Below are positions 119-57,231 of a stretch of DNA of 64,000 bases, piece by piece. Source of the DNA: Candidatus Latescibacterota bacterium (GTDB lineage: Bacteria > Latescibacterota > UBA2968 > GCA-2709665); NCBI GenBank assembly GCA_965203805.1, contig OZ241917.1, positions 2,592,001-2,656,000 on the forward strand, written 5' to 3'. Position 1 is the stretch's first letter, and every line of letters starts with the position of its first letter. The notes under the pieces were generated by a model, which saw nothing but the letters and a program-made list of their open reading frames with translations, was not told where the DNA came from and made no database searches. The position numbers were made by a program, and so were the translations under genes.

Positions 119-368
119 TCCCCCCACCACCGTCGCCGGCCGTTCCACATTTCGACCCTTCGGCGGGCTTGCTTCGACAAGCTCAGCACAAGCAGGGGCC
201 GGCTCGGCTTCTGCCTGCCTGCCGCCTGCCTGCGCCGCTGCGCTTCCCGCGGCAGGCAGGCGCTCCGCTTGGCGCAGGCAGGCGACTCCCCTCAAGGGGG
301 GAGTGATTGCGACGTGAATGCGCGACAGCCGGTGTCGAATGCGTCCACAGGGTGACGTGATTGCGAGA
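119..368. repeat. Composite palindromic (REP-cluster-like) repeat, copy A; direct repeat with 1577-1794
   Basis: Core 195-312 is nearly identical to 1620-1738. Contains nested CCTGCCTGC..GCAGGCAGG hairpins (214-282, inner 225-260), a CTCCCC-TCAA-GGGGGGAG hairpin and a 23-bp TTCGACAAGCTCAG element (171-193). Confidence 0.85.
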
Positions 369-7303: not shown

Positions 7304-8776
7304 ATGAAATCTGTTATTGACCTCCGTCCGTACGTCCTCATCTTGACGGGCGTTTTCCTGTGTCTGTCCGCCCTGCCCTGTGATGCGAACCCTGCAGGCC
7401 TGCCTGCGCCGAGTTCTCTGCCTCGCCTGCTTCAGCAGGCAGGTGCTCGGCAGGCAGGCGGACCCCGGTTGACCCTCGAGGCGTGTCTGAGGCAGGCGCT
7501 GGCCAACAACCGGCAACTGGCGGCGGCCGGATTCGCCGCCGAAAAGGCAAACTGGGACCGCCGGAACGCGTGGTCGCAGTTCGCGCCGAGGGTGAGCTTC
7601 AATACGGAGGTGACGCGGATTGACGAACAGACGCTGGCCGAGCGGGACTTTTCCAGGTACTTTCCACCCGAGATCCCCGTACCGCAAGTGGCGTTCCGGA
7701 CCTCGTACTATTCGTCGTTCCAGGCGCACGTCCCCATCTTCGACGCGGAACTGATCAACGGCGTTGCCGTGGCGACCACCGGACAGTCCGCGGCCGAACG
7801 GACTCGAGAGGCCATCCGCGATCAAATCCTCTATCAGGTCACCTTCGGGTACCTGGAAGTGCTGAAACGCCGCGCGACGCTCGAACTTCAGCGGGAATTC
7901 CTCGTCCTGACCGGCCTGAACGTCAAAAAAGCCGAGAGGATGCACCTTGCGGGGAGATATTCGAAGCTGGACCTGCTGCGGTGGCAGGTGGAACACCAGC
8001 AGCAGAAGAGCAGCGTGGCCGCGGGAGAGTCCGCCTTGCGCGATGCAACGGTTCGCTTGCGCCGGCTGCTCAACCTTCGCGCGCTGGAGACGGACGCGCT
8101 GGCGGACGCCGTCCCGGACGTTCTCAACGCGGAGGCCACGCGGCTGGCGAATTTGTCTGAAGGTGACATCCGGCGGCTGGCGGGCGTGGAGAACCGGACG
8201 CTGGTTGAAGGGAACGCAGTACTCGCAGCGGCGGAACGGGACCGGGAACGCAGCCGCCTGGTCTACCGGGGGCAGGTTTCGAGTTACCTGCCCGACGTCT
8301 CTCTCAGCTATTCGACGGCCTGGCGCAGAAACGATACGCCGGCGCTGGACGACTACAGACCCTCTACGGTCATGGTCAATCTGTCGGTTCCCCTGTTTAC
8401 GGGATTCCGAAACCTCTCGCGTCTGAAGTCGGCGCAATTCAGCTATCTGGCGCAGGATTCGCACTTCTCCGATCTGGTGGACGAGACCCGGCAGTCGCTT
8501 GGCGAGACGGTCAACCGGATCGTCAATCTGAAGAACCAGCGCGAACTGATCTCGACCAGCCTTGCGTTCAATGAAAACAACTATCGGATCGTCTCCCGGG
8601 AAAAGACGCTGGGGCGGGCATCGAATCTGGACGTCATCGATGCGAAGCTGAACCTGCAGAACGCCCGGCTGCTGGAGATCACAACGCGATTCGACCTCGC
8701 CTCAACGGCGGTCGAATTTCACTACCTGATGGGCAGCCTCGACGGTCTGGTCGAGGAAATGGCGGAGTCGGAATGA
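7304..8776 (+). CDS. TolC-family outer membrane efflux protein
   Basis: Signal-like N-terminus, LTLEACLRQALANN, VNLSVPLFTGF; GGAG SD before ATG 7304; first gene of an RND operon. Confidence 0.85.
   Translation: MKSVIDLRPYVLILTGVFLCLSALPCDANPAGLPAPSSLPRLLQQAGARQAGGPRLTLEACLRQALANNRQLAAAGFAAEKANWDRRNAWSQFAPRVSFNTEVTRIDEQTLAERDFSRYFPPEIPVPQVAFRTSYYSSFQAHVPIFDAELINGVAVATTGQSAAERTREAIRDQILYQVTFGYLEVLKRRATLELQREFLVLTGLNVKKAERMHLAGRYSKLDLLRWQVEHQQQKSSVAAGESALRDATVRLRRLLNLRALETDALADAVPDVLNAEATRLANLSEGDIRRLAGVENRTLVEGNAVLAAAERDRERSRLVYRGQVSSYLPDVSLSYSTAWRRNDTPALDDYRPSTVMVNLSVPLFTGFRNLSRLKSAQFSYLAQDSHFSDLVDETRQSLGETVNRIVNLKNQRELISTSLAFNENNYRIVSREKTLGRASNLDVIDAKLNLQNARLLEITTRFDLASTAVEFHYLMGSLDGLVEEMAESE
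7399..7458. mobile_element. Nested CCTGCCTGC micro-palindrome insertion (60 bp, in frame) in tolC
   Basis: CCTGCCTGCgccgag..[cctcgcctgc ttca gcaggcagg]..ctcgGCAGGCAGG; removal restores NPAGGPRLTLE. Confidence 0.75.
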
Positions 8777-12900: not shown

Positions 12901-13017
12901 CTTTTCGGCATGCTCGTGTCCACCGTGCTGACGTTATTCGTGATACCCTGCTTCATGGCTGTCCTGGACGATATCAAACGCGTGCGAAAAAAGGCGCGGT
13001 TGCGACCTGCTGCATAA
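9928..13017 (+). CDS. AcrB/AcrD/AcrF-family RND permease
   Basis: YPGASPEEVE, GIIVDDAIIVIEN, GIVVNDAIV, RLRPIILTS; 1029 aa. Confidence 0.95.
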   Translation: MSIVKFSVRNPVLVNLVMVGLLCFGGISLFSMPQEMNPQIDFNWVTVSIPYPGASPEEVESLIVVPIEAEIHDLNKIDELQSTADAGLALFLVKFEDMSESEFREVYTDLKGRIDRVELPDAAEDPEVDDFDSGDFLPVLTVNMAFTIPEENAQIVADDLEDDLKDISGVARVQVAGLPEREIWVEVDPSRLAARGLTVLDVVRAMQARNLNVSGGTLTYRAKEYAIRSLAEFRSVEEIRETIVRTAPRGETVRVRDVARVRDRREEPQVLSRLNGKPSITFSLSKKTDANTNDMILAVKETIRRYEERVPDGIGFTFTDDNSVYINRVIAALRNNAVTGMVLISLVLWLFLGSWNAFLATIGIPISFFITFILLGIFGYTINGSTLFAMVMVLGIIVDDAIIVIENCHRYRLQGHGAGEAAVLGAGEVTTPIISSVGTNIAAFLPLILLPGVMGKFMRIIPLTFALALAASVFEAFVLLPSHYAEWTRRSNAHKRGEQPFFRRLRRIYGRMLVRTLRRRYWVIGALVGVLIGALMILGRLPIDIYADDELDAFKVLIKFPEGTSLHESDRVTRAYEAEALRLSEADVEGVVVNVGLLQSNNEWLTRKSVSQVLVQLKPKEKRARMSDELMEMLRERTEHIEGPASVSFELFAGGPPEGKPISVKVQGRYLDRMKEAALVLQDSLRRIPGTLEVTDDFPPGKETIRIEVDEVRAALYGFSAQDVALNVRYAFDGVRATTFRDGDEEVGVIVQYDRANRSTVEDVLNVQVTNASGLTVALRDMVSFSIGPGRTKIKRFDRNRTIIVTGEIDEAVLTLDQINNRMLEIFPSIEAQYSDVSFHIGGEFTDFLEAFDNVAALFVVSLILMFLILGTQFNSYAQPLVILTSVPFAIIGALLGLLISGNPFSLISIFGFVALAGIVVNDAIVMVAFMNRRRRPGGSVTNVWRSIVNAGRLRLRPIILTSVTTISGLMPMAIGIGGKSALWSPLANVILFGMLVSTVLTLFVIPCFMAVLDDIKRVRKKARLRPAA

Positions 13018-13319
13018 TCGACCGGGGCAATCGCTCACGGTTGAACATTGGCTCGCGCTCTCGCCTTACTGTAAGGTATCGACGAAAATCGGAGGGATCG
13101 GTACAATCGAGCGCTCCACCCGGAGAAACACGGAACTATTCCAAAGCTTGTGATTCGTAGAACAACACATCCAATTGAGCTTGATTTGAAATAGCAATGT
13201 GCATTGTTGTGGAATTGTTTCTGTCCTGCTGAAACGTAGCTCGAAATAACGCCAATAGCGGAAAATTACATTGATGTAGAATCAAAAATGCGCGGCAACG
13301 ACGAAGGCGGGAGGTTCCA

Positions 13320-14315
13320 ATGAACAAACACGAATCCATACTATCAGTTCGATTCGATGGCACTGGAGTTGGCGCAGGTAGAATTCCTGTCTCTCATTTG
13401 CTACGATTTCTTTCCAATTTCAACAAGGTGCTTCATCGGACAGGCAGAGTGCTGCAGGGCGACACGGAAAGCTTGCGACGTGGCCAACCGCCTCAGCGCA
13501 TTGCATCTGAGGTTGAGCTTGAGTTGGTATCACTAACGCACGGAAGCCCAGCGGCGGTGTTGTCCTTCGATCGCGTACAGCAGCACCTCAACTTTCCAGA
13601 GATGGATTTTGGACTGCAAATCCTGGAAAGCGCCATCGGCGGACTCGAAACAGTCCAGCGGAAAAACGCCAATTACACGTTCCCGGAGGGATACGATACC
13701 GGTGTATTGATGGCTTGGCGTGACCTCGGAAAACTCTTCGGTCACGGTATCGAAAAGATCGAATTTACGTTGTCCCATTCACAGAAGCCAGTCCAGGCCT
13801 CCCTAACACCTGAAGGCGTTGCACACATCAAAGATAGGATTAAGGGACCTCAGGTAAACATCCGCGTAATCGAAGGGCGACTGTTGATGGCAGACTTCAA
13901 GGAGGACGGTACGCGATTCCGTGTGCATCCGTCAACTGGAGATCCGGTTCTTTGTCTGTTCGATGAAGAGCAAAAGGACGAAGTCTTGGAGAACATTCTG
14001 CAATACGTCCGCGTAGTTGGAGAGGCACGAGAAGATCCCGTGTCTCGAAAGATAGCGGAAATCAACATTCACGATATTGAGAGGCTGGATGAACTGCAAA
14101 ACGAAGCAACCGACCTACTGCCTCGCGGGACGCCAATTTCGCAGTCGTTTTGGAATTCGCCAACATTTCAGGAACTGGCGCGGACGCAGAACGTGCAGCC
14201 AATGGCAGACGTCAGGGTGCTGTTTGGTACCTGGCCGGACGACGAAGACGACGGCTTCGAGGCTTCAATTGACGAACTGCGACATCGTCGCGCCGAGACA
14301 GGTCCTTGGTCATGA
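13320..14315 (+). CDS. Hypothetical protein with C-terminal antitoxin-like acidic tail
   Basis: 331-aa lower-GC ORF with GGAGG SD; ATGA-coupled to the PIN gene. Confidence 0.7.
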   Translation: MNKHESILSVRFDGTGVGAGRIPVSHLLRFLSNFNKVLHRTGRVLQGDTESLRRGQPPQRIASEVELELVSLTHGSPAAVLSFDRVQQHLNFPEMDFGLQILESAIGGLETVQRKNANYTFPEGYDTGVLMAWRDLGKLFGHGIEKIEFTLSHSQKPVQASLTPEGVAHIKDRIKGPQVNIRVIEGRLLMADFKEDGTRFRVHPSTGDPVLCLFDEEQKDEVLENILQYVRVVGEAREDPVSRKIAEINIHDIERLDELQNEATDLLPRGTPISQSFWNSPTFQELARTQNVQPMADVRVLFGTWPDDEDDGFEASIDELRHRRAETGPWS

Positions 14316-14719
14316 GCGGATCCAGGGTCATTCTCGACACGAATATAGTTTCCTATCTGATGAAAGGTGGCCAGCTTGCTGCAGCATATGTGCCACATCT
14401 CCAAGGTCGGTTACTTGCAATCACTTTTGTTACTGTTGGAGAACTCTATTTCGGCGCGGAGAAACAAGGTTGGGGCGAAAAAAGACTAAGAACGCTTGAG
14501 ACCAACCTCCGTAACTTTGTGGTCATACCGTACGACTACGAGATTGCCCGGTGCTATGGCAAGGTGGTCGCGGAACGTCATCGCAAAGGACGACCGATTT
14601 CAGATAACGACGCATGGATAGCTGCCTGTACCGTAAGACATGGTATTCCATTGATTACACACAATGTAAAGGATTTTGAAAGCATTACTGCGCTTCAGTT
14701 AATCTCCGAGAATCGATAG
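14312..14719 (+). CDS. vapC: VapC-family PIN domain toxin
   Basis: ILDTNIVS, GELYFG, NDAWIAA, LITHNVKDF. Confidence 0.9.
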   Translation: MSGSRVILDTNIVSYLMKGGQLAAAYVPHLQGRLLAITFVTVGELYFGAEKQGWGEKRLRTLETNLRNFVVIPYDYEIARCYGKVVAERHRKGRPISDNDAWIAACTVRHGIPLITHNVKDFESITALQLISENR

Positions 14720-14823
14720 GCGCACTTGCGTCCTGTGTAACTTGTCGAGGGCGAACCGAGAGGCTACCGGGAGATTAACTCGCCGTTGTACGCCGACTGG
14801 CGCCTTACACAAAGGAGACTGGA

Positions 14824-15708
14824 ATGGCACTGACCGACGCGGAATTGAAACAGTACGAGGAACTTGGCGCCGTCACGATCGACAGCCCGTTCACGTCCGC
14901 GGAGCTCGACCGGGCGGAAGCCGCGTGGGACCGGCTGACGGCGAGCGGCCGGCCGCCGTACGAAGATCCCGACTATCTGGACGTCTTCCAGCATCCGTAC
15001 TTTGAAGACGTGGCAAGGAAACTGTTGCGGGCGGATGCCGTGCATCTCTGGTGGGGCGTGTCGCCCCACGGCCGTCACCCGGCCAAAGCGCCCTTTGGGA
15101 GCATCCGCGACCAGTGGGCAAGCGGATGCCACACCGACATCCAGGCCACGTGGGACGACTTCCAGGCGACGCCCCGCAGGATGCGCGCGGAGCTGTGGTT
15201 CTGGCTCAACGACGTGCCGGAGCATCGGGGGGCGATGCGCATATTGCCCGGAAGCCACCGACCCATTATGGAATACTGGAGCCGCGTCCTCACGCCGGAG
15301 CACAAGGCGATGCTGCCTCGCGTTCACGGGGTGCGTCCGAGTCCGGCCGAAGGCACGGGGTCCTATCCGGAGCATGTGCCCGACCTGACCGGTACGCCCT
15401 GGCTGGATCAGGAGCCGGCGCCTATGGTGGCCCGTCGAGGACAGATGCTGATTCTATGCAGTTCCGGCCTGCACTCGGCCTGGCAGAACGAGGATACCGC
15501 GCCCCGAAAGGCGATGCTTTCGGCATGGGCCGCCACGGGCGTTTCCTGCGGACTGCCCAAGGGCCAGCGCGACTCGCTGATGGCGTTCTTCCCCCGGCTG
15601 CGGGAGAAACTGCGCCCGGAACGGGCTCACATCGTTCCGGAAGACTTCGAATGGCTCTTCGAGAGCAACTACGAGCCGAAGTGGCCCGAGACGTTTATCG
15701 GGACATAG
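14824..15708 (+). CDS. PhyH-family 2OG/Fe(II) dioxygenase
   Basis: HTD, PGSH and distal LHSA motifs. Confidence 0.8.
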   Translation: MALTDAELKQYEELGAVTIDSPFTSAELDRAEAAWDRLTASGRPPYEDPDYLDVFQHPYFEDVARKLLRADAVHLWWGVSPHGRHPAKAPFGSIRDQWASGCHTDIQATWDDFQATPRRMRAELWFWLNDVPEHRGAMRILPGSHRPIMEYWSRVLTPEHKAMLPRVHGVRPSPAEGTGSYPEHVPDLTGTPWLDQEPAPMVARRGQMLILCSSGLHSAWQNEDTAPRKAMLSAWAATGVSCGLPKGQRDSLMAFFPRLREKLRPERAHIVPEDFEWLFESNYEPKWPETFIGT

Positions 15709-16526
15709 TTCAGACTCAAAAGTGCCTCGCCATTCGGCCGACGACTTATCCCGTCGCTGGGTGTTGCTTGCGCTGCTTGCACTGAGCTTGCCGAAGCGGC
15801 TTGTCGAAGTGCCATCGCTGGACGACGTTGCTCAGGTCGCTTGTTGTCGGTCACAACCCCCTTTGGAACTAACCTCTTGGGGGACAAAGGCTTTATCTCT
15901 TCCACCAACTCTCATTTTCTCTTCGTCCTTTTTCTTGTACGCCCAAGAAAAAGGACCAAAAAGAACGGCGCCTGCCTGCCGAGCAGGCTTCGGCCTGTCT
16001 GCCGTTCCAACGGGACAGGCAGGCGCAGGCAGGCCGCTCGGCGCGGGGCCGGTTTTTCCGTGAACCACCTCAGTGGCGCAATTGGAATTTGGTTGCCCTT
16101 TCACCGAAACCGCCCATCCCGAACGATGTTGCTGGACGGAATAGCACGGAAAAACCCCTCCCTTCACCACCGTGCGGAGCGTAGGTCGTCCGGGGAGTTC
16201 ATCCTGGTGGATTCGCGTGGATCCGCCGATTGTATTTTGCTGTATGTTTTTCGGTCAAGCTGACAACTGTGGGCTGATTGCTGGTTCTGCTCCCCCTCTC
16301 CCCCCGGGAGAGGGGGCCGGGGGGAGAGGTTTGCGGGGCTGAGGGTGGTTCGCTCTCGGCTGAACGCCGACCGCTGATAGCTGTTTTTCGATGGCAGGGA
16401 ATTTGGGGAAAAGGGGATTTTGAACTTGATCTTGGATTTTGGTTCAAGCTGACTGCTGATGGCTGAACGCTGATCGCTGCTTTTCTCCAGCCGAATTCAA
16501 GCGAACTATCTCCGGGACAGAACACT
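15707..16526. mobile_element. Non-coding ~820-bp MITE-like element, copy 1 (left end degenerate)
   Basis: Colinear with 56391-57231 over ~550 bp and again at the right end (GGGACAGAACACT); carries nested palindromes, a CCCCTCTCCC..GGGAGAGGGG hairpin and GCTGANN heptamers (16448-16479). Confidence 0.7.
15971..16033. mobile_element. Nested micro-palindrome insertion (33 + 30 bp)
   Basis: Absent at the homologous site 56632/56633 (aagaacggcg|ccgctcggcg); no duplication of flanks. Confidence 0.85.
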
Positions 16527-16549
16527 GTGACACACTTGGAGGGAACGCC

Positions 16550-17773
16550 ATGCAACCGGTCGACCGCGATCGATTCCTGGAAGAGGGCTACCTTGTGGTC
16601 AGGGAAGCCATTCCCCGCGAGAAGCTGCAGGAAGTTCGCCGGGTCTACGAAACGCTGGTGAACCGCCAGCGGGAAAACTGGACGGCCATGCGAAAGGAAG
16701 GCGACCCGCCGGGAGGCGAGTGGGAGACGAGCCCGCAACCCCGCCTCATGCTCCAGCGGCCGCCGCTGATCCGCGGGATCGATGAAGAGACGGCGCCCGC
16801 GGTCGAGGTGTGGCTGGAGCCGAACATCCAGGGCGTCAGCTCCCGGCTTCTGGGCGTTGCGGACGCGGCGGTAACCGAAATGATGATGATGTGCAACCCG
16901 GTCCGAGACCACGGCCCGGCGAAATGGCATCGCGACCACCACCCGATCGACACCGCTCCCCTCCAGGGATATATCGACGACATCCTCGAAGGGGGACCTC
17001 GTTACGTCCAATGGAACATACCCCTTTACGACGACAGCGTCCTGGTGGTGATTCCGGGCAGCCACGTGAGGTTCAACACGACCCGGGAAAACGAGTGCCT
17101 GCTGGCCGATCCTTGCCGGCCCTTGCCGAACGGCGTCCGGACCCGCCTCGAAGCGGGCGACGGCGTTGTGTACATCCTCCCGCTTCTCCACTGGGGCAGC
17201 AATTACAGCCCCAGGTTGAGACGGACCATACACGGCGGGTTTTCCACCCACACGTCGATTGACGATCTCTCGTTCGCGGAACACCTATCGACGGGAACGG
17301 CAGCCGCGTTCGAGCGCTGGAATCAACGGAGCCTGGAGATGAAGGGTCACACGGAGGAAGCGCTCAGAGCGGTTGTCGAATGCGACGGGGAGGGGTATAA
17401 CGCGGCGTTGAACCGGCTTCATCCGGGCCGGAGCGAAAAGGGAAAGATGCTCACCACGGTCTTCCTGTGCAAGGCCGCATTGGCGATCCGACTTGCCAAA
17501 AACGCGCCGTATCCCGATGTACCCGATGAGCTCTCGCGCCGGCTTCGGGGCGCGCATCCGATCACGCTCAACTGGGGTCCGGCGTTCGCGAAACGGTTCG
17601 ACGAATCAGAGGCGGAGACGTTGTGGAAACGGTTCGAACCGCTGGACCGGTTGCTCCGATCGGATGCGGAGCATTTCGTGCCGGGATTTCAGTCCGGACC
17701 GATGCAATATCACTTCAACGAGATGCCGGAGGGTTACACGACCTCGGATTTCATCGCGGGATGGGGTTCGTGA
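16550..17773 (+). CDS. PhyH-family dioxygenase with C-terminal extension
   Basis: WHRD, VIPGSH, LLHWGS; GGAGG SD. Confidence 0.8.
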   Translation: MQPVDRDRFLEEGYLVVREAIPREKLQEVRRVYETLVNRQRENWTAMRKEGDPPGGEWETSPQPRLMLQRPPLIRGIDEETAPAVEVWLEPNIQGVSSRLLGVADAAVTEMMMMCNPVRDHGPAKWHRDHHPIDTAPLQGYIDDILEGGPRYVQWNIPLYDDSVLVVIPGSHVRFNTTRENECLLADPCRPLPNGVRTRLEAGDGVVYILPLLHWGSNYSPRLRRTIHGGFSTHTSIDDLSFAEHLSTGTAAAFERWNQRSLEMKGHTEEALRAVVECDGEGYNAALNRLHPGRSEKGKMLTTVFLCKAALAIRLAKNAPYPDVPDELSRRLRGAHPITLNWGPAFAKRFDESEAETLWKRFEPLDRLLRSDAEHFVPGFQSGPMQYHFNEMPEGYTTSDFIAGWGS

Positions 17774-24658: not shown

Positions 24659-25045
24659 CGTCGAACCTCCTCAGGAACGTTCCACCCCTGCGTTCAGAAG
24701 CTACCTGGAAAATAACGTCAGAAACTACGAAACACGCGAAAAAAACGAAAGATCCGTGGCTGAGACCAATTACCGCAGGAGGCGCAACACCGCAATGTTG
24801 CACGCGGATGAATTCGCCTCAGCAATCGGTTTAATACCAAAATAAAACCGATTCCGCAAGCGAAATATGCCGCAATCGACCTTTCGCGTTTCCCCTTGAT
24901 TTTCAGCCATGAATTCGGTAATTAGCCTCAATTCGAAAAAAGAAAACCGAAGAATTGGCCACAAAAAGCACAAAAGGCACAAAGAGCATCCGTTCAAAGT
25001 AGCGTGTGTCGTAACGCCGCCAATTGTTCAGCACATCCGGTTTCC

Positions 25046-34352: not shown

Positions 34353-34708
34353 CTTTCCTTCTCCTCAAGGATTGCGTGTTGATGCCAGAACTGTGTCCCG
34401 TCTCGGAACGATGTCACCGCTTGTCCGCCCATTCATCCCGCCTGCCTGCGGCGCCGCGCACTTCAAGATACAAAAACAGTACATTCCCGGCAACCCCATC
34501 CAGTGCGTCAGGCGCCATCATTAAGAAATATAACAGGATGTATTATTTTCTTGCTTTTAAAATTACTCTTGCTTATTTTTAAAGCTTGCTTTACCGACTC
34601 ATTCCGCGAGGTGTTCCGCGCACGGAGACCCCTCGGCCGTTTTCCGTTTCCGCCAGGGGTTCAACGGGAAGAAACGGTTGATACGAACTTCAATAGGGAG
34701 ACGTTTGC

Positions 34709-38763: not shown

Positions 38764-38961
38764 GCCGCGGTCCTCGCCGTCTTCCGATGGTTCCGTCGGG
38801 GAAAGGTCCTCTACCAAGTACCGGAACACCACGCACAGAATGGCCGAATAATTGGCGAGACTAAGGCCTTGGGAGCCATTGCGATGGTCCATTCAATCGA
38901 AAGCTGCACCCATCACCTTTTGCGGTTGGCGACTAAAGCCTCTGCGGGGTCATTTCGTCAA

Positions 38962-40271
38962 GGAACCTCTGATCAACCAGAGGGAATGAGCAAGTTGTAA
39001 CTTATGGGTCGTTTCGGAGGCTGTTTATGTTGAGAGGGTCGTCATCTTTCGGGTTTGCACGGGTGATTCCGGCCCCGGATGCGCTCGGTGCCGGCCATTT
39101 TGGCCGCCAGCGTCCGAATTGGAGGCACGGGTGCCTATGTAGTAGCCAGTTCCTGACGTGCCATATGGAAGTTAGCCAAGGCAAACAAGGTGAACAGATG
39201 CGCCGTATTCTTCGCCAGACCGCGATACCTGACCTTTCGGTAGCCCCACAGGTGTTTGATGATCCCAAAGGGATGTTCCCTGTCTGCGTGCGTGAGACAG
39301 CACGCACAGGCAGGGACCCGTGCGCGCGTGCGATTGCTCTTCTTGTTGAACGAAACATCCGCGCAGTTGAGCCGCTTGCCCCGGCGGGCCTTGCGAAGCA
39401 CTCGCCATTCCACGTCGTTGGCTTCGGCCCGTTCTTTTCGCGTCTGATCCGCATAGGCCTTGTCGCCGTAGATGGTCTTTTCTTTTCCGTGCAGACAGGC
39501 ATCCATCGCCTGCGAATCATGCACCGAAGCGGGGGTGGTCACCACACTGTGCACCCGTCCCTTCACATCCGCGCCCACGTGCGCCTTCATGCCGAAATGC
39601 CACGTGTTGCCCTTCTTCGTGCTGGCCATTTCAGGATCCCGTTTCCGATCCTTGTTCTTCGTCGAAGAAGGCGCGTGAATGATCGTGGCATCCACGATCG
39701 TGCCTTCGTTCACGATCAATCCCCGCCTGGACAAGTAGCGCTTCGTTTGCCGAAACAACGCTTCCGTCAACCCATGGTGCTCCAGAAAGTGACGGAATTT
39801 GCAGATCGTCGTCTCATCAGGTACGCCGTTGATGTTCACACCCGCAAAGCCCTGCCTGCAGCAGGCAGGGACGCATCGACTCCACGTCGTAGAGACTGTC
39901 TTCCATTCCCGGATCGCTCAATCCATACCATTGTTGCATAAAGTAGATACGCAGCATCACCTCCGCACCGATCGGACGACCTGCCTGCGCCGACTCGGCA
40001 GGCAGGCGACCGTTGCCAGGTTTCGGATACTTCCTCTCAATCGATTTAAGCAGTATCTCCCACGGCAACACCGCATCCATCTCTTTCAGAAAACGTTCCC
40101 TGCGCGTCTGCTTCTTCTTCGTCCTGTACGCCAGATCCGAAAAACTCATTTGTTTCATCCCTGGGCCCCTCGTTCTATGTCGATCCATCAGAAATCACAA
40201 CACGACGGCTCACGCTCCAATTCTACGACTTTCTGCATGGCGTGCCAATAGGTAACTTAATCAGAGCTTCC
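38962..40271 (-). mobile_element. IS5-family element, complete with TIRs and 4-bp TSD
   Basis: TIR GGAA(C/G)CTCTGAT(C/T)AA at both ends; TCAA duplicated at 38958-38961 and 40272-40275. Confidence 0.9.
39135..40158 (-). pseudogene. IS5 transposase interrupted by three micro-palindromes (39279-39314, 39851-39869, 39980-40006)
   Basis: TRRERFL, PDETT, IVDATII, WHFGMKAH, GDKAY; the 19-bp insert causes the frameshift. Confidence 0.9.
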
Positions 40272-41845
40272 TCAAATAGATCAGCTTGCTTTGCCCGGCG
40301 CCGTGTAGCCCACTCGGGAAACAACTCGGCAACAGAATTCGCGGGGACATTTGCCAACTCCTTTGGCTCTAGCTTATGCAGTCCGCCTCCGTAGACGCGA
40401 CCCTCCCCGAGCATCACCCCCGGAGAGATTTCGTTCAGGAACTCCCACACCTGTCGCTTTAGTATGGGCATTTCCTGGATGGCGCGATTTAAGGGTTCTT
40501 TCGGGTACAACATCAAATACACGTTTGCGGCCGTTGCCTTGGAATTGTTCAATATGAAACGAAACGGCCTTCCGCTCTTCCTGTCGCTTCGGCCCAGATA
40601 GGTACAGACGTACGGAGCCGGCGGCCGGTATTCCTGTCTGTACCAAAGCGCACGATGCCGACAGATATAGCGATCACTTACGCCCTCCGCCTTGCCTTCC
40701 TCCAGATACGTCCAAAGACTTGGATAACGTTTCTTGATTTCGCTTTCCATCCACGGTGGATCGAGCAGGAACAATCGCAGTTTGAGAAGCGGATTGCCCA
40801 TTCGATCGCCCTCGACTTCGTCCTCGGGCACATATCTCGGGCTAGGAAGGATTGGCTTGAATGCATCCATAGGCAGCTGGCGCTGATGGATCTGCTCGGC
40901 TGACAGGATGAAATAGCTGTTGTTACCCGTAGCCAAACCCCGTTTTATCTCGAAAAAGTCACCCAGCACCGGTCCATCGGCTGCTTCATGGTTCTGACTC
41001 TTAGGATAACGTGTCCATTTTGGCTCACGGCGCAAAGTCTCGAGAGGAACCAATCGATCCAACACCGGTTGTTCTAGTGTTCCGCCATAGGTGAACCGAA
41101 CTTGATGCTGTGGTCGAGGAGGTTCGTTCCGGAACCACACCACAGCCGACGACACAAGCGCATCGCAGAATTGCACGTCATTCGGATCGAAGCGGTGAAT
41201 GTGATGAAGCGTCACCTTGTCGAGCAGGTAGCGCTTCACCGCTACCCCGTACTTCACGTCCATGAATTCGCTGGGGATCAACCAGCCAGCCAGCCCGCCG
41301 GCGGTCATCCACATATGACTTATGCAGAGGAAATAGCAATAAAGCCCGGCCAGACCGTTAATTTTCACGCCGGAAGCGGCTTGCGCGCGCGACCTTAACA
41401 GCTTTTTCTCCCCACTGTCAATATGGTGGTGCCGCACATAGGGCGGATTACAGATCAGCAGGTTGAACCGATCGGAAGCCTCTGGCGCATCGGCCCGCGT
41501 GAAGTCTTCCAATATAATTTCCAGACCCGTCTTGCCCCACAGCGTCGTTGCCGGCCTGCCGTAATGCGGATCTATCTCATATCCAATGGCAGCGTCGATA
41601 CGGGCTTGGGAAAACGCGTGCAGCAGCGCCGAATAGAAAGCGCCAGTCCCGATAGCCGGGTCGATGAAACGCAATCTCTCGTTCTTGCCGAGACGCGCCT
41701 TCGCGTATCGCTGAATATCGACAGCAAGGCTGGTTGGTGTAGCGAACTGCCCCATTCTGTTTCGTACGGCTGCGTCTCTTCTCGCATCCAGTTCTTCCTG
41801 AAGTGCCAGCCGCCGAGTCTCTAATCCTGCAACCGCCATATTCAT
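40223..41845 (-). CDS. N6-adenine DNA methyltransferase (Eco57I/TaqI-like) of a type II RM pair
   Basis: GQFATP, DPAIGTG, NPPY; C-terminus runs into the IS5 end. Confidence 0.9.
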   Translation of the reverse strand: MNMAVAGLETRRLALQEELDARRDAAVRNRMGQFATPTSLAVDIQRYAKARLGKNERLRFIDPAIGTGAFYSALLHAFSQARIDAAIGYEIDPHYGRPATTLWGKTGLEIILEDFTRADAPEASDRFNLLICNPPYVRHHHIDSGEKKLLRSRAQAASGVKINGLAGLYCYFLCISHMWMTAGGLAGWLIPSEFMDVKYGVAVKRYLLDKVTLHHIHRFDPNDVQFCDALVSSAVVWFRNEPPRPQHQVRFTYGGTLEQPVLDRLVPLETLRREPKWTRYPKSQNHEAADGPVLGDFFEIKRGLATGNNSYFILSAEQIHQRQLPMDAFKPILPSPRYVPEDEVEGDRMGNPLLKLRLFLLDPPWMESEIKKRYPSLWTYLEEGKAEGVSDRYICRHRALWYRQEYRPPAPYVCTYLGRSDRKSGRPFRFILNNSKATAANVYLMLYPKEPLNRAIQEMPILKRQVWEFLNEISPGVMLGEGRVYGGGLHKLEPKELANVPANSVAELFPEWATRRRAKQADLFEEALIKLPIGTPCRKS

Positions 41846-50275: not shown

Positions 50276-51319
50276 CTATCCGCTCAATACCTCGAGTTCA
50301 CGGTCCGGACCCGTGAGCGGCAACTCGACCCACGCGGCGTTTCCGGCATGGGAAACGTGAAAGCCCACAATGGCTTCCAGCGTCCGCGCAGCTTCCGTTG
50401 CGGCATAGGGAAAGGGCGCTTTGCCGTCCAGCCAATCCACAATCTCGCCCACCGCCACGTCCATCGAACTTGGGGAACCGTGAGGATCCGGCCAGTGCTC
50501 CCGCCGCCCGTCGCGGAACTCCAGGACCACGTCCCTGCCGTCGAGCGCGGCGCAGCCTTCCGTACCGTGGACCGCGATCCTCGGCGGCAGCGTCGCATAG
50601 TCCGCAGCGTCGACCGTACAGATCAGTCCGCGCTCGAGACGCAGCATGCCCCATCCGCCAGGGTCGCGGAACTGTGCGCCGCGGCAATCCGGCTTCCCGG
50701 CCGGATCCAGCGTGCCCGAGACCGCCTCGACGGCCCGTCCCGTCAACATCTGGATCGTATCGATGAAATGCGTTCCGACGTTGCCAAGCCGCCCCGAGCC
50801 CCATTGCACGATTGCCGACGTCAGCTCTCCCAATGCGCCTTCGACCACGAGGTCGCGCAGACGCCGGGCGTTGGCCTGGAAACGGCGGTTGTGGTTCACG
50901 ACGAGAAGGGCGCCGGCGTCATCGCAGGCGCTGCGCATCCGCTCCGCGTCCGATGCGCGGGTCGCGACGGGTTTTTCGCAATAGACGGCTCGCACCCCTT
51001 GCCGTGCGCAGGCGACCGTGACGTCGACATGAAATGGCGCATAGGTCGCGACGCTTACGACGTCGAGTGACTCCTCTGCCAGCATGTCCCGCCAGTCGGC
51101 GTAGGTCGGTACGCCCGTTCGGGCGTGAAACCGCTCCCTCCGTCCGCTGTCCCGGCTGGACCCGGACGCGATTACGACCCGCGGATGTCCGCTCAACGCA
51201 TCGACGTGGGTACCGTCCAGGTCGCTTACGAATTGGCCTATTGCGTCGCCCGATACCTGGTCCGCGGCGCCAATAAAGCCCAGGCCCACGATCCCGGCAC
51301 GATAGGTCTTTTCAGCCAT
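50276..51319 (-). CDS. Gfo/Idh/MocA oxidoreductase
   Basis: GIVGLGFIG, YCEKP, GTHFID. Confidence 0.9.
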   Translation of the reverse strand: MAEKTYRAGIVGLGFIGAADQVSGDAIGQFVSDLDGTHVDALSGHPRVVIASGSSRDSGRRERFHARTGVPTYADWRDMLAEESLDVVSVATYAPFHVDVTVACARQGVRAVYCEKPVATRASDAERMRSACDDAGALLVVNHNRRFQANARRLRDLVVEGALGELTSAIVQWGSGRLGNVGTHFIDTIQMLTGRAVEAVSGTLDPAGKPDCRGAQFRDPGGWGMLRLERGLICTVDAADYATLPPRIAVHGTEGCAALDGRDVVLEFRDGRREHWPDPHGSPSSMDVAVGEIVDWLDGKAPFPYAATEAARTLEAIVGFHVSHAGNAAWVELPLTGPDRELEVLSG

Positions 51320-56390: not shown

Positions 56391-57231
56391 AGTGTCCTGT
56401 CCCAAAAATACCTCACCATTCTTCCGCCGATTCATCCCGTCTTTTGACGTTGCTTGCGCTGAGCTTGTCGAAGTGCCTTCGCTCGCCGACCTGCCCAAGT
56501 CGCCTGTTGGCGGACAAACACCCTTTGGAACTAACCTCTTGGGGGCCAAAGACTTTATCTCTTCCACCAACTCTCATTTTCTCTTCGTCCTTTTTCTTGT
56601 ACGCCCAAGAAAAAGGACCAAAAAGAACGGCGCCGCTCGGCGCGGGGCCGGTTTTTCCGTGAACCACCTCAGTGGTAACAACGGAACTATGCCGCCCTCT
56701 GACCGGAACAGCCGGTAACGAACGATGTTGCTGGACGGAATAGCACGGAAAAACCCCCCAATCCACAACCGGGCGGACTAAAGATCGTCCGGGGAGTTCA
56801 TCTTGGTGGATTCGCGATGGTCCGCCGTTTGTCTTTTGCTGTTTGCCTTTGCTTCGAGCTGACGGCTGTCCTCATCATTCAAGTGCCAATCGATCTACAA
56901 GGGTATTCGCTGACCGGAGGACTTTCAGAGCAGAGCGCGCGGTTCCGTCCAGCTACGCCGAACGATTGGTTTCCGCGGGTTTGAGGGCAGAGGATCCCGT
57001 GCGTCCTGTGAGTGGATTCGCGCTGTGCATATGGCAGGCCCCGCGCCCAGCGGCGACTTTTGGTTCCTTTTGGTCGCTTCAAAAGGAACCCGCCGGAGGC
57101 AGGGAATTTGGGGAGATGTGGACGTTGAATTTGAAGTTGGCTTTTGATTCAAGCCGACGGCTGGCGGCTGACAACTGATCGCTGCTTTTCTCCGGCCGAA
57201 TTCAGGCAACTAATTTCCGGGACAGAACACT
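56391..57231. mobile_element. Non-coding ~840-bp MITE-like element, copy 2
   Basis: TIR AGTGT(C/T)CTGTCCC (12/13 match); colinear with 15707-16526 except for a different middle segment. Confidence 0.72.

Follow-up and report, generated by a model that had tools for sequence, protein, structure and literature searches.

The stretch of DNA analysed here (the window) comprises 64,000 nucleotides, positions C1:2592001-2656000, of a single-contig genome of 5.87 Mb with a G+C content of 59% (G000; the codes G001-G020 denote the genomes used for comparison, and L002 and similar codes denote loci). It contains two copies of a mosaic intergenic repeat, one of which carries 63 additional bp at positions 15971-16033. 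In our interpretation, this insert is probably a two-level nest of very small mobile hairpins, in which a 33-nt member of a hairpin family occupies a hot spot (GGCG^CC) of the intergenic repeat and a 30-nt guest sits inside it at ...GG^CGCAGGCAGG, the elements having moved as folded single strands. Integration of the family members is blunt, without target-site duplication (TSD). Nested blunt insertion is the right description for the family, and is supported mainly by evidence located outside positions 15971-16033.

A nested insert in one of two repeat copies

The features of the two repeat copies are as follows.

15707-16526, plus strand: host repeat copy 1, mosaic and intergenic, from pairwise alignment
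56391-57231, plus strand: host repeat copy 2, mosaic and intergenic, from pairwise alignment
15971-16033, plus strand: composite insert of 63 bp, an outer 33-nt hairpin with an inner 30-nt hairpin, from alignment and fold
15971-15993, plus strand: outer 33-nt element, 5' part (CCTGCCTGCCGAGCAGGCTTCGG); 11 other host-repeat copies have the uninterrupted 33-mer at this site
15994-16023, plus strand: inner 30-nt element (CCTGTCTGCCGTTCCAACGGGACAGGCAGG), from its fold and 14 genomic occurrences
16024-16033, plus strand: outer 33-nt element, 3' part (CGCAGGCAGG)
56630-56635, plus strand: empty site of copy 2, GCG^CCG, with the insertion point at 56632/56633, slidable by 3 bp

The host repeat is approximately 820 bp long, and the alignment of its two copies shows a single clean gap of 63 bp. 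On the left side of the insert, the two copies are 97-100% identical over approximately 118 bp, and on the right side they can be aligned over approximately 238 bp. Copy 2 reads AAGAACGGCG^CCGCTCGGCGCGGGG across position 56632/56633, or GAACGGCG^CCGCTCGG in a longer context. An earlier note on this DNA had reported 63 extra bp in copy 1 and had described them as a 33-bp element that holds a 30-bp element. Both observations were confirmed: the insert is missing from copy 2 and has the layout CCTGCCTGCCGAGCAGGCTTCGG + CCTGTCTGCCGTTCCAACGGGACAGGCAGG + CGCAGGCAGG, with the 30-nt unit splitting the 33-nt unit at CCTGCCTGCCGAGCAGGCTTCGG^CGCAGGCAGG. The 63-nt strand folds with an energy of -21.3 kcal/mol (z = -3.9), and none of 200 shuffled sequences folded equally well. 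A second, identical 63-mer was identified in G000 at 2517678-2517740, at the same site of another copy of the host repeat.

The outer boundary of the insert can be slid by 3 bp, with GCC present both at 15970-15972 and at 16033-16035, and the inner boundary likewise slides by 3 bp (GGC). A duplication of up to 3 bp is therefore possible at 15971-16033, and its absence is not provable there. The host repeat contains three junctions, each of which can also be parsed as a 2-bp duplication of GC. Moreover, precise loss, or gene conversion among the repeat copies, would leave the same picture at 15971-16033, and the choice among these histories cannot be fixed from that site.

The hairpin family and its nesting

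The two elements belong to a family with the ends CCTG[C/T]CTG...CAG[G/A]CAGG. Its members are 19-37 nt long, mostly 27-37 nt, with clusters at 27, 30, 31, 33, 36 and 37 nt, and they share an architecture that consists of a stem of 8-9 bp, a bulge of 2 nt in the 3' arm and a short stem-loop further in, while the interiors vary. The 30-nt element folds into an 8-bp stem with a 2-nt bulge (GA) on the 3' arm, followed by a 4-bp stem and a tetraloop, and the same plan was recognised by eye in the sequences of the 33-nt outer element and of the members referred to as T-type. Because of the bulge, the near-palindrome has a defined strand, which is the plus strand for both the outer and the inner element of 15971-16033.

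The motif CCTGCCTGC occurs 279 times in the genome, as compared to approximately 48 occurrences expected from the base composition, and the pattern CCTGCCTGCN{9,19}GCAGGCAGG was found 100 times per strand in G000. By recursive removal of innermost units bearing the family ends, we identified 266 elements in G000, with a total length of 8454 bp, of which 231 are innermost, 30 second-level and 5 third-level elements. In form, they resemble repetitive extragenic palindromic sequences (REPs), being short (20-40 nt) imperfect palindromes in high copy number, as seen from the 266 elements and their folds. Thirty-five elements serve as hosts, and peeling off the guests gave back canonical hosts of 27-34 nt in 35 cases; after guest removal, 18 of the 30 second-level hosts measure 33 nt, which is also the length seen most often across the family. 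The 36 nested events represent 29 unique combinations of host, offset and guest, nearly all of them at ..CG^C.. steps. Identical members were found in unrelated contexts, within one another and within genes, and one 33-mer with 19 copies is present in at least seven unrelated flank contexts. Two further composites are located in the window.

214-282, plus strand: nested composite of a 33-nt host (214-224 and 261-282) with a 36-nt guest (225-260); a second copy is at 1639-1707
7399-7458, plus strand: composite of a 33-nt host with an irregular, 5'-truncated guest of approximately 27 nt

Filled and empty sites

Blunt integration was deduced from five pairs of filled and empty sites, in which related or paralogous copies are empty and the ambiguity of the junction is 0, 0, 1, 1 and 1 bp. 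Three of the five pairs are provided by an insertion sequence (IS) in the window.

38962-40271, minus strand: IS5-family insertion sequence (DDE_Tnp_1 and DUF772), with the TSD TCAA at 38958-38961 and 40272-40275
39279-39314, plus strand: 36-nt member in the IS5-family transposase gene, in frame; empty in G002 and G013, present in G007; ambiguity 0 bp
39851-39869, no strand assigned: 19-nt member in the same transposase gene, frame-shifting; empty in G007, G002 and G013; ambiguity 0 bp
39980-40006, minus strand: 27-nt member in the same transposase gene, in frame; empty in G007, G002 and G013; ambiguity 1 bp

The fourth pair is a 27-nt member located in frame in an open reading frame (ORF) for a DUF1156/methyltransferase protein (G000 4547652-4547678). 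It is absent from all four homologs examined, namely one in G008, two copies in G011 and one in G016, which belongs to another genus. The target, GCGGGCG^TCCCGCCCGC, corresponds to the junction between stem and loop of a 7-bp hairpin, and the insertion can be slid by only 1 bp, so that a GC duplication is impossible at this site. The fifth pair comes from a second IS-like unit that exists in multiple copies; two of eight copies have a 33-nt member and the other six lack it, with a slide of 1 bp. The IS5-family element itself served as a positive control: it has a 4-bp TSD, and the orthologous site in G001 is empty with a single TCAA.

A fixed duplication of a given length would produce at least that much ambiguity at every junction. 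The observed minimum of 0 bp thus shows that there is no fixed TSD and that insertion is blunt. The claim in the earlier note that the flanks are not duplicated therefore holds for the family, on the basis of the five pairs with an ambiguity of 0-1 bp, while at the site for which it was made it is unprovable on account of the GCC slide. The same note had favoured an HUH- or recombinase-type mechanism over a DDE transposase. The first part of this preference is plausible, and the placing of DDE transposases behind it agrees with the junctions and with the 4-bp TSD of the control, but the recombinase part is not supported, as junctions with 0 bp of common sequence are difficult to explain by a serine, tyrosine or IS110-type crossover within a shared core.

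One alternative is that the elements are miniature inverted-repeat transposable elements (MITEs), mobilised by a DDE transposase with a GC target of 2 bp that becomes duplicated. The terminal inverted repeats of 8-9 bp, the G...C flanks of 119 of the 231 innermost and 25 of the 35 outer elements, and the three host-repeat junctions, all of which can be read as a GC duplication, are consistent with such a mechanism. However, four of the five compared junctions cannot be read in this manner (TTC^GAC, AGC^GGC, GCG^TCC and ATC^CAC; ambiguity 0-1 bp), and the flanks that are not G^C tend to be complementary (C^G, 47 cases) rather than direct repeats. Furthermore, no autonomous copy was found among 26 hairpin-bounded intervals, only some of which were inspected in detail. 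We consider this explanation extremely improbable.

A site-specific recombinase (a serine recombinase of the IS607-like type, a tyrosine recombinase or an IS110/bridge-RNA system) that crosses over within a short shared core would also leave no long duplication, and the G^C preference could reflect a palindromic 2-bp core. Elements of the IS110/IS1111 type insert into palindromic or REP-like sequences. REPs are mentioned as targets of insertion sequences in PMC3733652. A shared core requires that the ambiguity equals or exceeds the core length at every event, but the observed minimum is 0 bp and the target sequences are heterogeneous, which makes a recombinase highly improbable. DDE transposases and core-dependent recombinases are thus both disfavoured.

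Target choice

The five compared targets are GCG^TCC, TTC^GAC, AGC^GGC, CGA^CGA and ATC^CAC. Across the genome, 119 of the 231 innermost elements have G^C flanks and 47 have C^G flanks, and 25 of the 35 outer elements have G...C flanks. After the elements had been oriented by their bulge, no fixed target word of 4-5 nt was found on either side: the left flanks are GGCG, TCGG, GGCG, GGGA, GTTC, GTCG and AGGA, and the right flanks start with CC, CG, CG, CG, GA, TC and GT. Targets that can form hairpins include the loop junctions of two REP-like families located beside genes for REP-associated tyrosine transposases (RAYTs), a small hairpin at the site of the 63-bp insert, and other members of the family. 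In summary, the targets conform loosely to G^C or C^G steps, and the DNA around them is GC-rich and often able to form hairpins.

The IS5-family element is present in five copies that are 100% identical (window 38962-40271 and G000 1308656, 1512710, 3680001 and 5651643). Its transposase gene is split by the 19-nt hairpin into two ORFs on the minus strand, at 39817-40188 and 39135-39839, and the related copies in G002, G007 and G013 are single ORFs for proteins of 325-338 amino acids. The element thus seems to have multiplied after it had gained the frame-shifting hairpin. Since five identical copies exist despite the hairpin, its effect may be overcome when the gene is expressed, through frameshifting, bypass or transient excision.

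States of the insertion sites across the genome

In total, 27 copies of the host repeat were classified in G000 at the site GGCG^CCGCTC, based on 27 regular-expression matches minus 2 false ones, plus 2 rearranged empty copies that were read by eye. Ten copies are empty, 11 contain the 33-nt element, four contain a relative of 37 or 41 nt, and two contain the 63 bp. The insert is thus held by a small minority of the copies. The earlier note had linked its presence in most copies to a hairpin deletion in copy 2, and this outcome was not seen. A further member of 36 nt was found at a second site of the host repeat, GCTCGGCG^CGGGG, in three copies.

The inner 30-mer was identified at 14 genomic places (with up to 3 mismatches). 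At 12 of these, it is nested at the identical YGG^CGCAGGCAGG position of a complete outer element, the outer elements having at least five different interiors; of the remaining two, one is located in an outer element that lacks the 3' arm and one stands alone. Every outer variant that hosts the 30-mer was also found without the guest, which indicates either repeated site-specific gain or repeated precise loss.

A different hairpin repeat also provides a site with several states, and the window contains an empty copy of it.

16290-16330, plus strand: second host hairpin repeat, empty copy (CTCCCCCTCTCCCC..GGGAGAGGGGG^CCGGGGGGAGAGG), with the site at 16316/16317

Elsewhere in the genome, 42 copies of this repeat could be classified, of which 31 are empty, seven carry a 33-nt element and four carry a 63-nt composite. 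One more composite was seen separately.

The orthologous site in G001, with flanks that are approximately 92% identical, contains a 33-nt outer element of the 'AAC' variant and no inner element. After the outer element, the G001 sequence runs straight into the sequence that follows window position 16316/16317, the insertion site of the second host hairpin. As compared to window positions 15994-16316, approximately 320 bp between the hairpin of the insert site and the GGGGG^CCGGGG site are missing from G001 (L004). A comparable joint, from 16036 to 16365, was seen in a contig from run X5, and in a copy of an insertion sequence at approximately 1.369 Mb the DNA between two hairpins is likewise missing. 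Deletions from hairpin to hairpin therefore seem to be recurrent, and the site of the 63-bp insert is a place of turnover.

These states bear on a further explanation, according to which the 63 bp were brought to the locus when copies of the large repeat recombined or underwent gene conversion, or else copy 2 lost them by precise excision, so that no fresh insertion occurred here even though the family is still mobile. The identical 63-mer at the same site at 2517678-2517740 is consistent with this, as are the outer elements of the 'GCT' variant, all 13 of which are located at this single host-repeat site. In addition, each of the two host-repeat subfamilies includes filled as well as empty copies, and the 'AAC' variant that is already present at the G001 locus indicates turnover. 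On the other hand, the two 63-bp copies differ in the subfamily of their left flank, which excludes a simple duplication, and the strict position of the inner element in at least five outer variants makes independent insertion plausible too. We regard conversion or excision as somewhat unlikely overall; at this locus, the 63 bp may have arisen in place or may have been transferred by conversion from the 2.518-Mb copy.

It could also be argued that the hairpins are ancestral and that the empty sites were derived by replication slippage across the palindromes, with 1-3 bp of microhomology. The 3-bp repeats GCC and GGC at the junctions of the 63-bp insert could mediate such events, and deletions between hairpins do occur, as in the G001 ortholog, the IS copy at approximately 1.369 Mb and the X5 contig. 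Yet the related or paralogous copies are empty in all five comparisons, and two of the junctions have 0 bp of microhomology. Empty copies also predominate in the second host repeat (31 of the 42 classified), identical elements are present in unrelated contexts, and slippage could not create the same sequence of 27-36 nt in methylase and transposase genes. Very unlikely as an account of these sites and already contradicted as a general explanation, slippage survives as a process of occasional loss.

We also searched the Logan contigs of four public sequencing runs, in which contigs break at repeats (the X1 pieces stop at 15920 and restart at 16312). A joint that skips the 63 bp (from 15969 to 16033) was present in all four runs, at a depth of 14-108, which indicates multiple copies, and with sides of 18-27. 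Given the multi-copy depth and the short sides, the joint is attributed to paralogous empty copies, and it says nothing about polymorphism at the locus.

The mobilising enzyme

The anatomy of the elements suggests a mechanism in which the element would move as a folded single strand: the junctions are blunt, the bulge makes the hairpin strand-specific, the targets are prone to form hairpins, and gain and loss apparently leave no scar. A structure-specific enzyme acting in trans would recognise the bulged hairpin and cut on either side precisely at the base of the stem, similar to the HUH/Y1 'peel-and-paste' reaction of IS200/IS605 elements, which has also been proposed for REPs. Gain and precise loss would both be scar-free, which would explain why every outer variant occurs both with a guest and without one. 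An HUH-like single-strand mechanism is our best guess, with a roughly even chance of being right, and it is derived from this anatomy rather than from an enzyme.

Only two Y1/HUH genes were identified in G000, and both are RAYT-like. Against NF047646, for which the cut-off is 80 bits, RAYT1 (4533506-4534117) scored 104 bits and RAYT2 91.6 bits. A family hairpin starts at 4534124, 6 bp past the stop codon TGA of RAYT1 (4534115-4534117). RAYT1 and its three orthologs in G001, G008 and G011 are flanked, in both orientations, by hairpins of the type GAGGGCA-GG(G)A-TGCCCTC, a family with only 16-18 copies in G000. RAYT2 is a Y1 domain located in frame within the methylase ORF and is bounded by hairpins of the type GCGGGCG-TCC-CGCCCGC, as read by eye from the sequence. 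The two RAYTs of G000 thus appear to serve other REP families.

The question is then whether the elements could be canonical REPs, mobilised by one of these RAYT (Y1 HUH) transposases. Two RAYT-like genes are available, each with one family hairpin beside or inside its ORF in G000, and the size and palindromic form of the elements match those given for REPs in PMC3733652. However, both adjacencies are insertions specific to G000 that are missing from the orthologs, and the RAYTs have flanking hairpin families of their own. The sequence GTAG was found within 6 nt of none of 231 elements, and CGTC within 6 nt of 9 (3.9%, as compared to a background of 4.4%). The elements are mostly singletons or nested, and not inverted doublets (gaps of 100 bp or less in 11 of 233), and their copy number does not follow the presence of RAYTs. 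We consider mobilisation by a RAYT of G000 unlikely.

Movement of the elements as folded single strands remains our preferred interpretation, and the following observations weigh against it. Many copies ride in larger repeats and share flanks, so that independent events are far fewer than the 266 elements, and the 13 'GCT' copies may have travelled with the repeat or by gene conversion instead of representing 13 insertions. A filled/empty pair between G000 and G001 at window positions 34441-34450 lacks a clean junction and was left uncounted. The family hairpin adjacent to RAYT1 is missing from the orthologs in G001, G008 and G011. Among 30 RAYT/Y1 loci in G000 and its relatives, only one had a family hairpin within 1.5 kb, and there was none near 12 such loci in five genomes from other phyla. 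The presence of RAYTs does not track the copy number: G015, with 107 copies, shows no more than weak Y1 matches, and G017, G018 and G020 have strong RAYTs yet no copies of the family. Finally, no replichore bias in orientation was seen, with the origin and terminus guessed from the GC skew and many copies being passengers of larger repeats; by the same guess, the T-type members are oriented 17+/12- in the right and 19+/19- in the left replichore, and those with an orientation defined by the bulge (B-type) 6+/9- and 21+/19-, respectively.

A parent insertion sequence with the same terminal ends was also searched for, and no autonomous copy was found among the 26 hairpin-bounded intervals listed, of which only some were inspected in detail. 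In the two IS families inspected, the transposase genes are interrupted by family hairpins and not bounded by them.

RAYT1 (G000:C1:4532300-4535600, L016; orthologs L017, L018 and L020) is located within an array of repeats of approximately 330 bp, which carry GAGGGCA-GGGA-TGCCCTC hairpins, some of them preceded by GTAG. These hairpins apparently constitute a small classical REP family, distinct from the one studied here. The methylase ORF (G000:C1:4546926-4550684, L002) encodes a protein of 1252 amino acids that is DUF1156/D12-methyltransferase-like, with the RAYT-like Y1 domain inside. This arrangement is kept as one open frame of 1171-1441 amino acids in G008, G011 (two copies) and G016 (homologs L049, L050 and L051), and the frame in G016 contains two Y1 domains.

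Distribution across genomes and viral contigs

The pattern CCTGCCTGCN{9,19}GCAGGCAGG, found 100 times per strand in G000, was counted 102 times per strand in G001, 63 in G011, 30 in G007, 17 in G008, 13 in G012 and 10 in G013, and 0-8 times in the eight other species of the genus (0, 0, 1, 1, 2, 2, 6 and 8). Species of a single genus thus differ approximately 100-fold in copy number. In the same family, two further genera have 107 and 84 matches per strand, and in the sister family there were none in all but two of 19 genomes. The reversed control pattern gave no match in any of the genomes counted, including G000. The dominant interiors vary from genome to genome.

In a scan of a genome collection with one genome per species, at least 81 matches were obtained, many of which are ordinary hairpins whose 9-bp stem is the same by coincidence. 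The bulged architecture was present in 23 of 81 among the matches listed for genome contigs, and only these were used. The record titles among the matches listed include Latescibacterota, Verrucomicrobiota, Planctomycetota, the PVC group, Kiritimatiellota, Desulfarculaceae, Methylomirabilia, Bacteroidota, Patescibacteria and others, where the phylum labels are those of metagenome bins and mis-binning is possible. Five of the genomes with such matches contain 3, 3, 12, 19 and 12 copies of the family. Among viral contigs, the same bulged architecture was found in 32 of 71 matches.

The missing link to RAYTs, the approximately 100-fold spread in copy number and the occurrence under several phylum labels and in viral contigs point to a mobilising activity that is still to be identified. 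As a broader and more tentative interpretation, which we hold as possible and short of probable, the family may represent a cosmopolitan, partly phage-borne and RAYT-independent bulged hairpin of approximately 20-37 nt that is cut and pasted bluntly, also into coding sequences, by an as yet unknown class of enzyme in many phyla.

Larger units that contain the hairpins also differ between G000 and G001. Modules of approximately 200-400 bp that are studded with family hairpins are located at G001:C15:59430-59640 and 83300-83710 (L045, L047), at places where the window is empty (50276-50278 and 24697-24969), which shows that such decorated units are also gained or lost between the two species.

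Comparison with known small mobile elements

Short palindromes associated with RAYTs are known as REPs and REPINs, for which a single-strand mechanism has been proposed (Bertels and Rainey, 2011; PMC3116915). According to Di Nocera et al. (2013; PMC3733652), REPs carry an unpaired GTAG or CGTC tag at one end. REPs and REPINs resemble the family in being imperfect palindromes of 20-40 nt in tens to hundreds of copies, some of them in frame in genes and some inserted in other small palindromes, with a presumed movement as single-strand hairpins and no duplication. In contrast, the family failed three tests that define REPs, in that it lacks the GTAG/CGTC tag, does not flank a RAYT gene and does not form inverted doublets. 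It also differs from what these sources describe in its conserved ends and variable interiors, in its singletons and self-nested stacks, and in its occurrence under many phylum labels and in viral contigs.

Closest in behaviour are the SDR1-8 repeats of Nostocaceae, reportedly described by Elhai and colleagues in 2008, which are said to be mobile repeats of 21-27 nt whose insertion sites include one another and short palindromes (HIP1 in the case of SDR5). The two groups would be alike in their very small size, mutual insertion and insertion into palindromes, a likeness of kind only. The family differs in its sequences and phylum, in its longer bulged hairpins with defined inverted ends, and in that blunt insertion was established by comparison of filled and empty sites.

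The IS200/IS605 elements, with the Y1 HUH transposase TnpA, insert without duplication, are excised precisely and depend on the recognition of imperfect hairpins in single-stranded DNA. They are 600-2000 bp long, have distinct left and right subterminal hairpins and a fixed target of 4-5 nt, and show an orientation bias towards the lagging strand. The family resembles them in its insertion without TSD (five comparisons, 0-1 bp), but has one hairpin, a loose target, no orientation bias that could be seen and no encoded enzyme.

MITEs are 70-300 bp long according to PMC3733652. They share with the family the terminal inverted repeats, the lack of coding capacity, the dependence on an enzyme acting in trans and the lineage-specific bursts. 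Unlike MITEs, which are larger and duplicate their target, the family members are 19-37 nt long and cause no target duplication. The palindromic elements of Rickettsia, the GC clusters of mitochondria and the 'byp' elements are further examples of small palindromes that are tolerated in coding sequences. The family is similar to them in this tolerance and differs in sizes, sequences and hosts. The Rickettsia elements are mentioned in PMC3733652. No description of the family was found in the literature searched by both end motifs and by terms for small repeats, the latter leading to work on REPINs, HIP1 and tagged REPs, although the supplements of PMC3733652 and PMC3116915 could list related families.

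If the elements are truly autonomous substrates of an enzyme that acts in trans, they would be among the smallest mobile DNAs known. G000 represents a clean natural experiment, with empty, singly filled and doubly filled states of one site, with intragenic pairs of filled and empty sites, and with a DDE element in the window as a control for duplication. The missing RAYT link and the patchy distribution make a concrete search for the enzyme possible. The hairpins create both in-frame and frame-shifting insertions in genes and mediate deletions from hairpin to hairpin, which is of relevance for the annotation and comparison of genomes from uncultured bacteria.

Other features of the window and its host repeat

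A segment of 1.8 kb at 13005-14806, with an ORF at 13320-14315, is absent from G001 and represents a strain-variable insertion. The contigs of runs X4 and X5 skip 13005-14806 and have 27 other letters instead. Words sampled from window positions 15300-17300 were found, besides in the best study (P1), in runs of five more studies, which contain 39-61% of them; of these, P2-P5 are labelled as sponge, coral or marine metagenomes. Three RNA runs contain 7-13% of the words sampled from the same positions.

The host repeat was found in all 14 other genomes of the genus that were searched. No Rfam family was identified for window positions 15000-17500 at E-values up to 1. The genes downstream of the repeat were considered as a test for a leader RNA: 11 of 23 copies have no ORF of at least 200 amino acids on the same strand within 1.4 kb, and the genes downstream of the rest are heterogeneous. 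The core of the repeat (window 15922-16176 and 56584-56785; approximately 27 copies in G000) contains a 13-bp hairpin, followed by a long-range closing helix of 14 bp. Three base pairs are changed on both sides between the two subfamilies (CG/TA at one position and TA/CG at two), and the core may represent either a structured RNA or a MITE-like unit of larger size.

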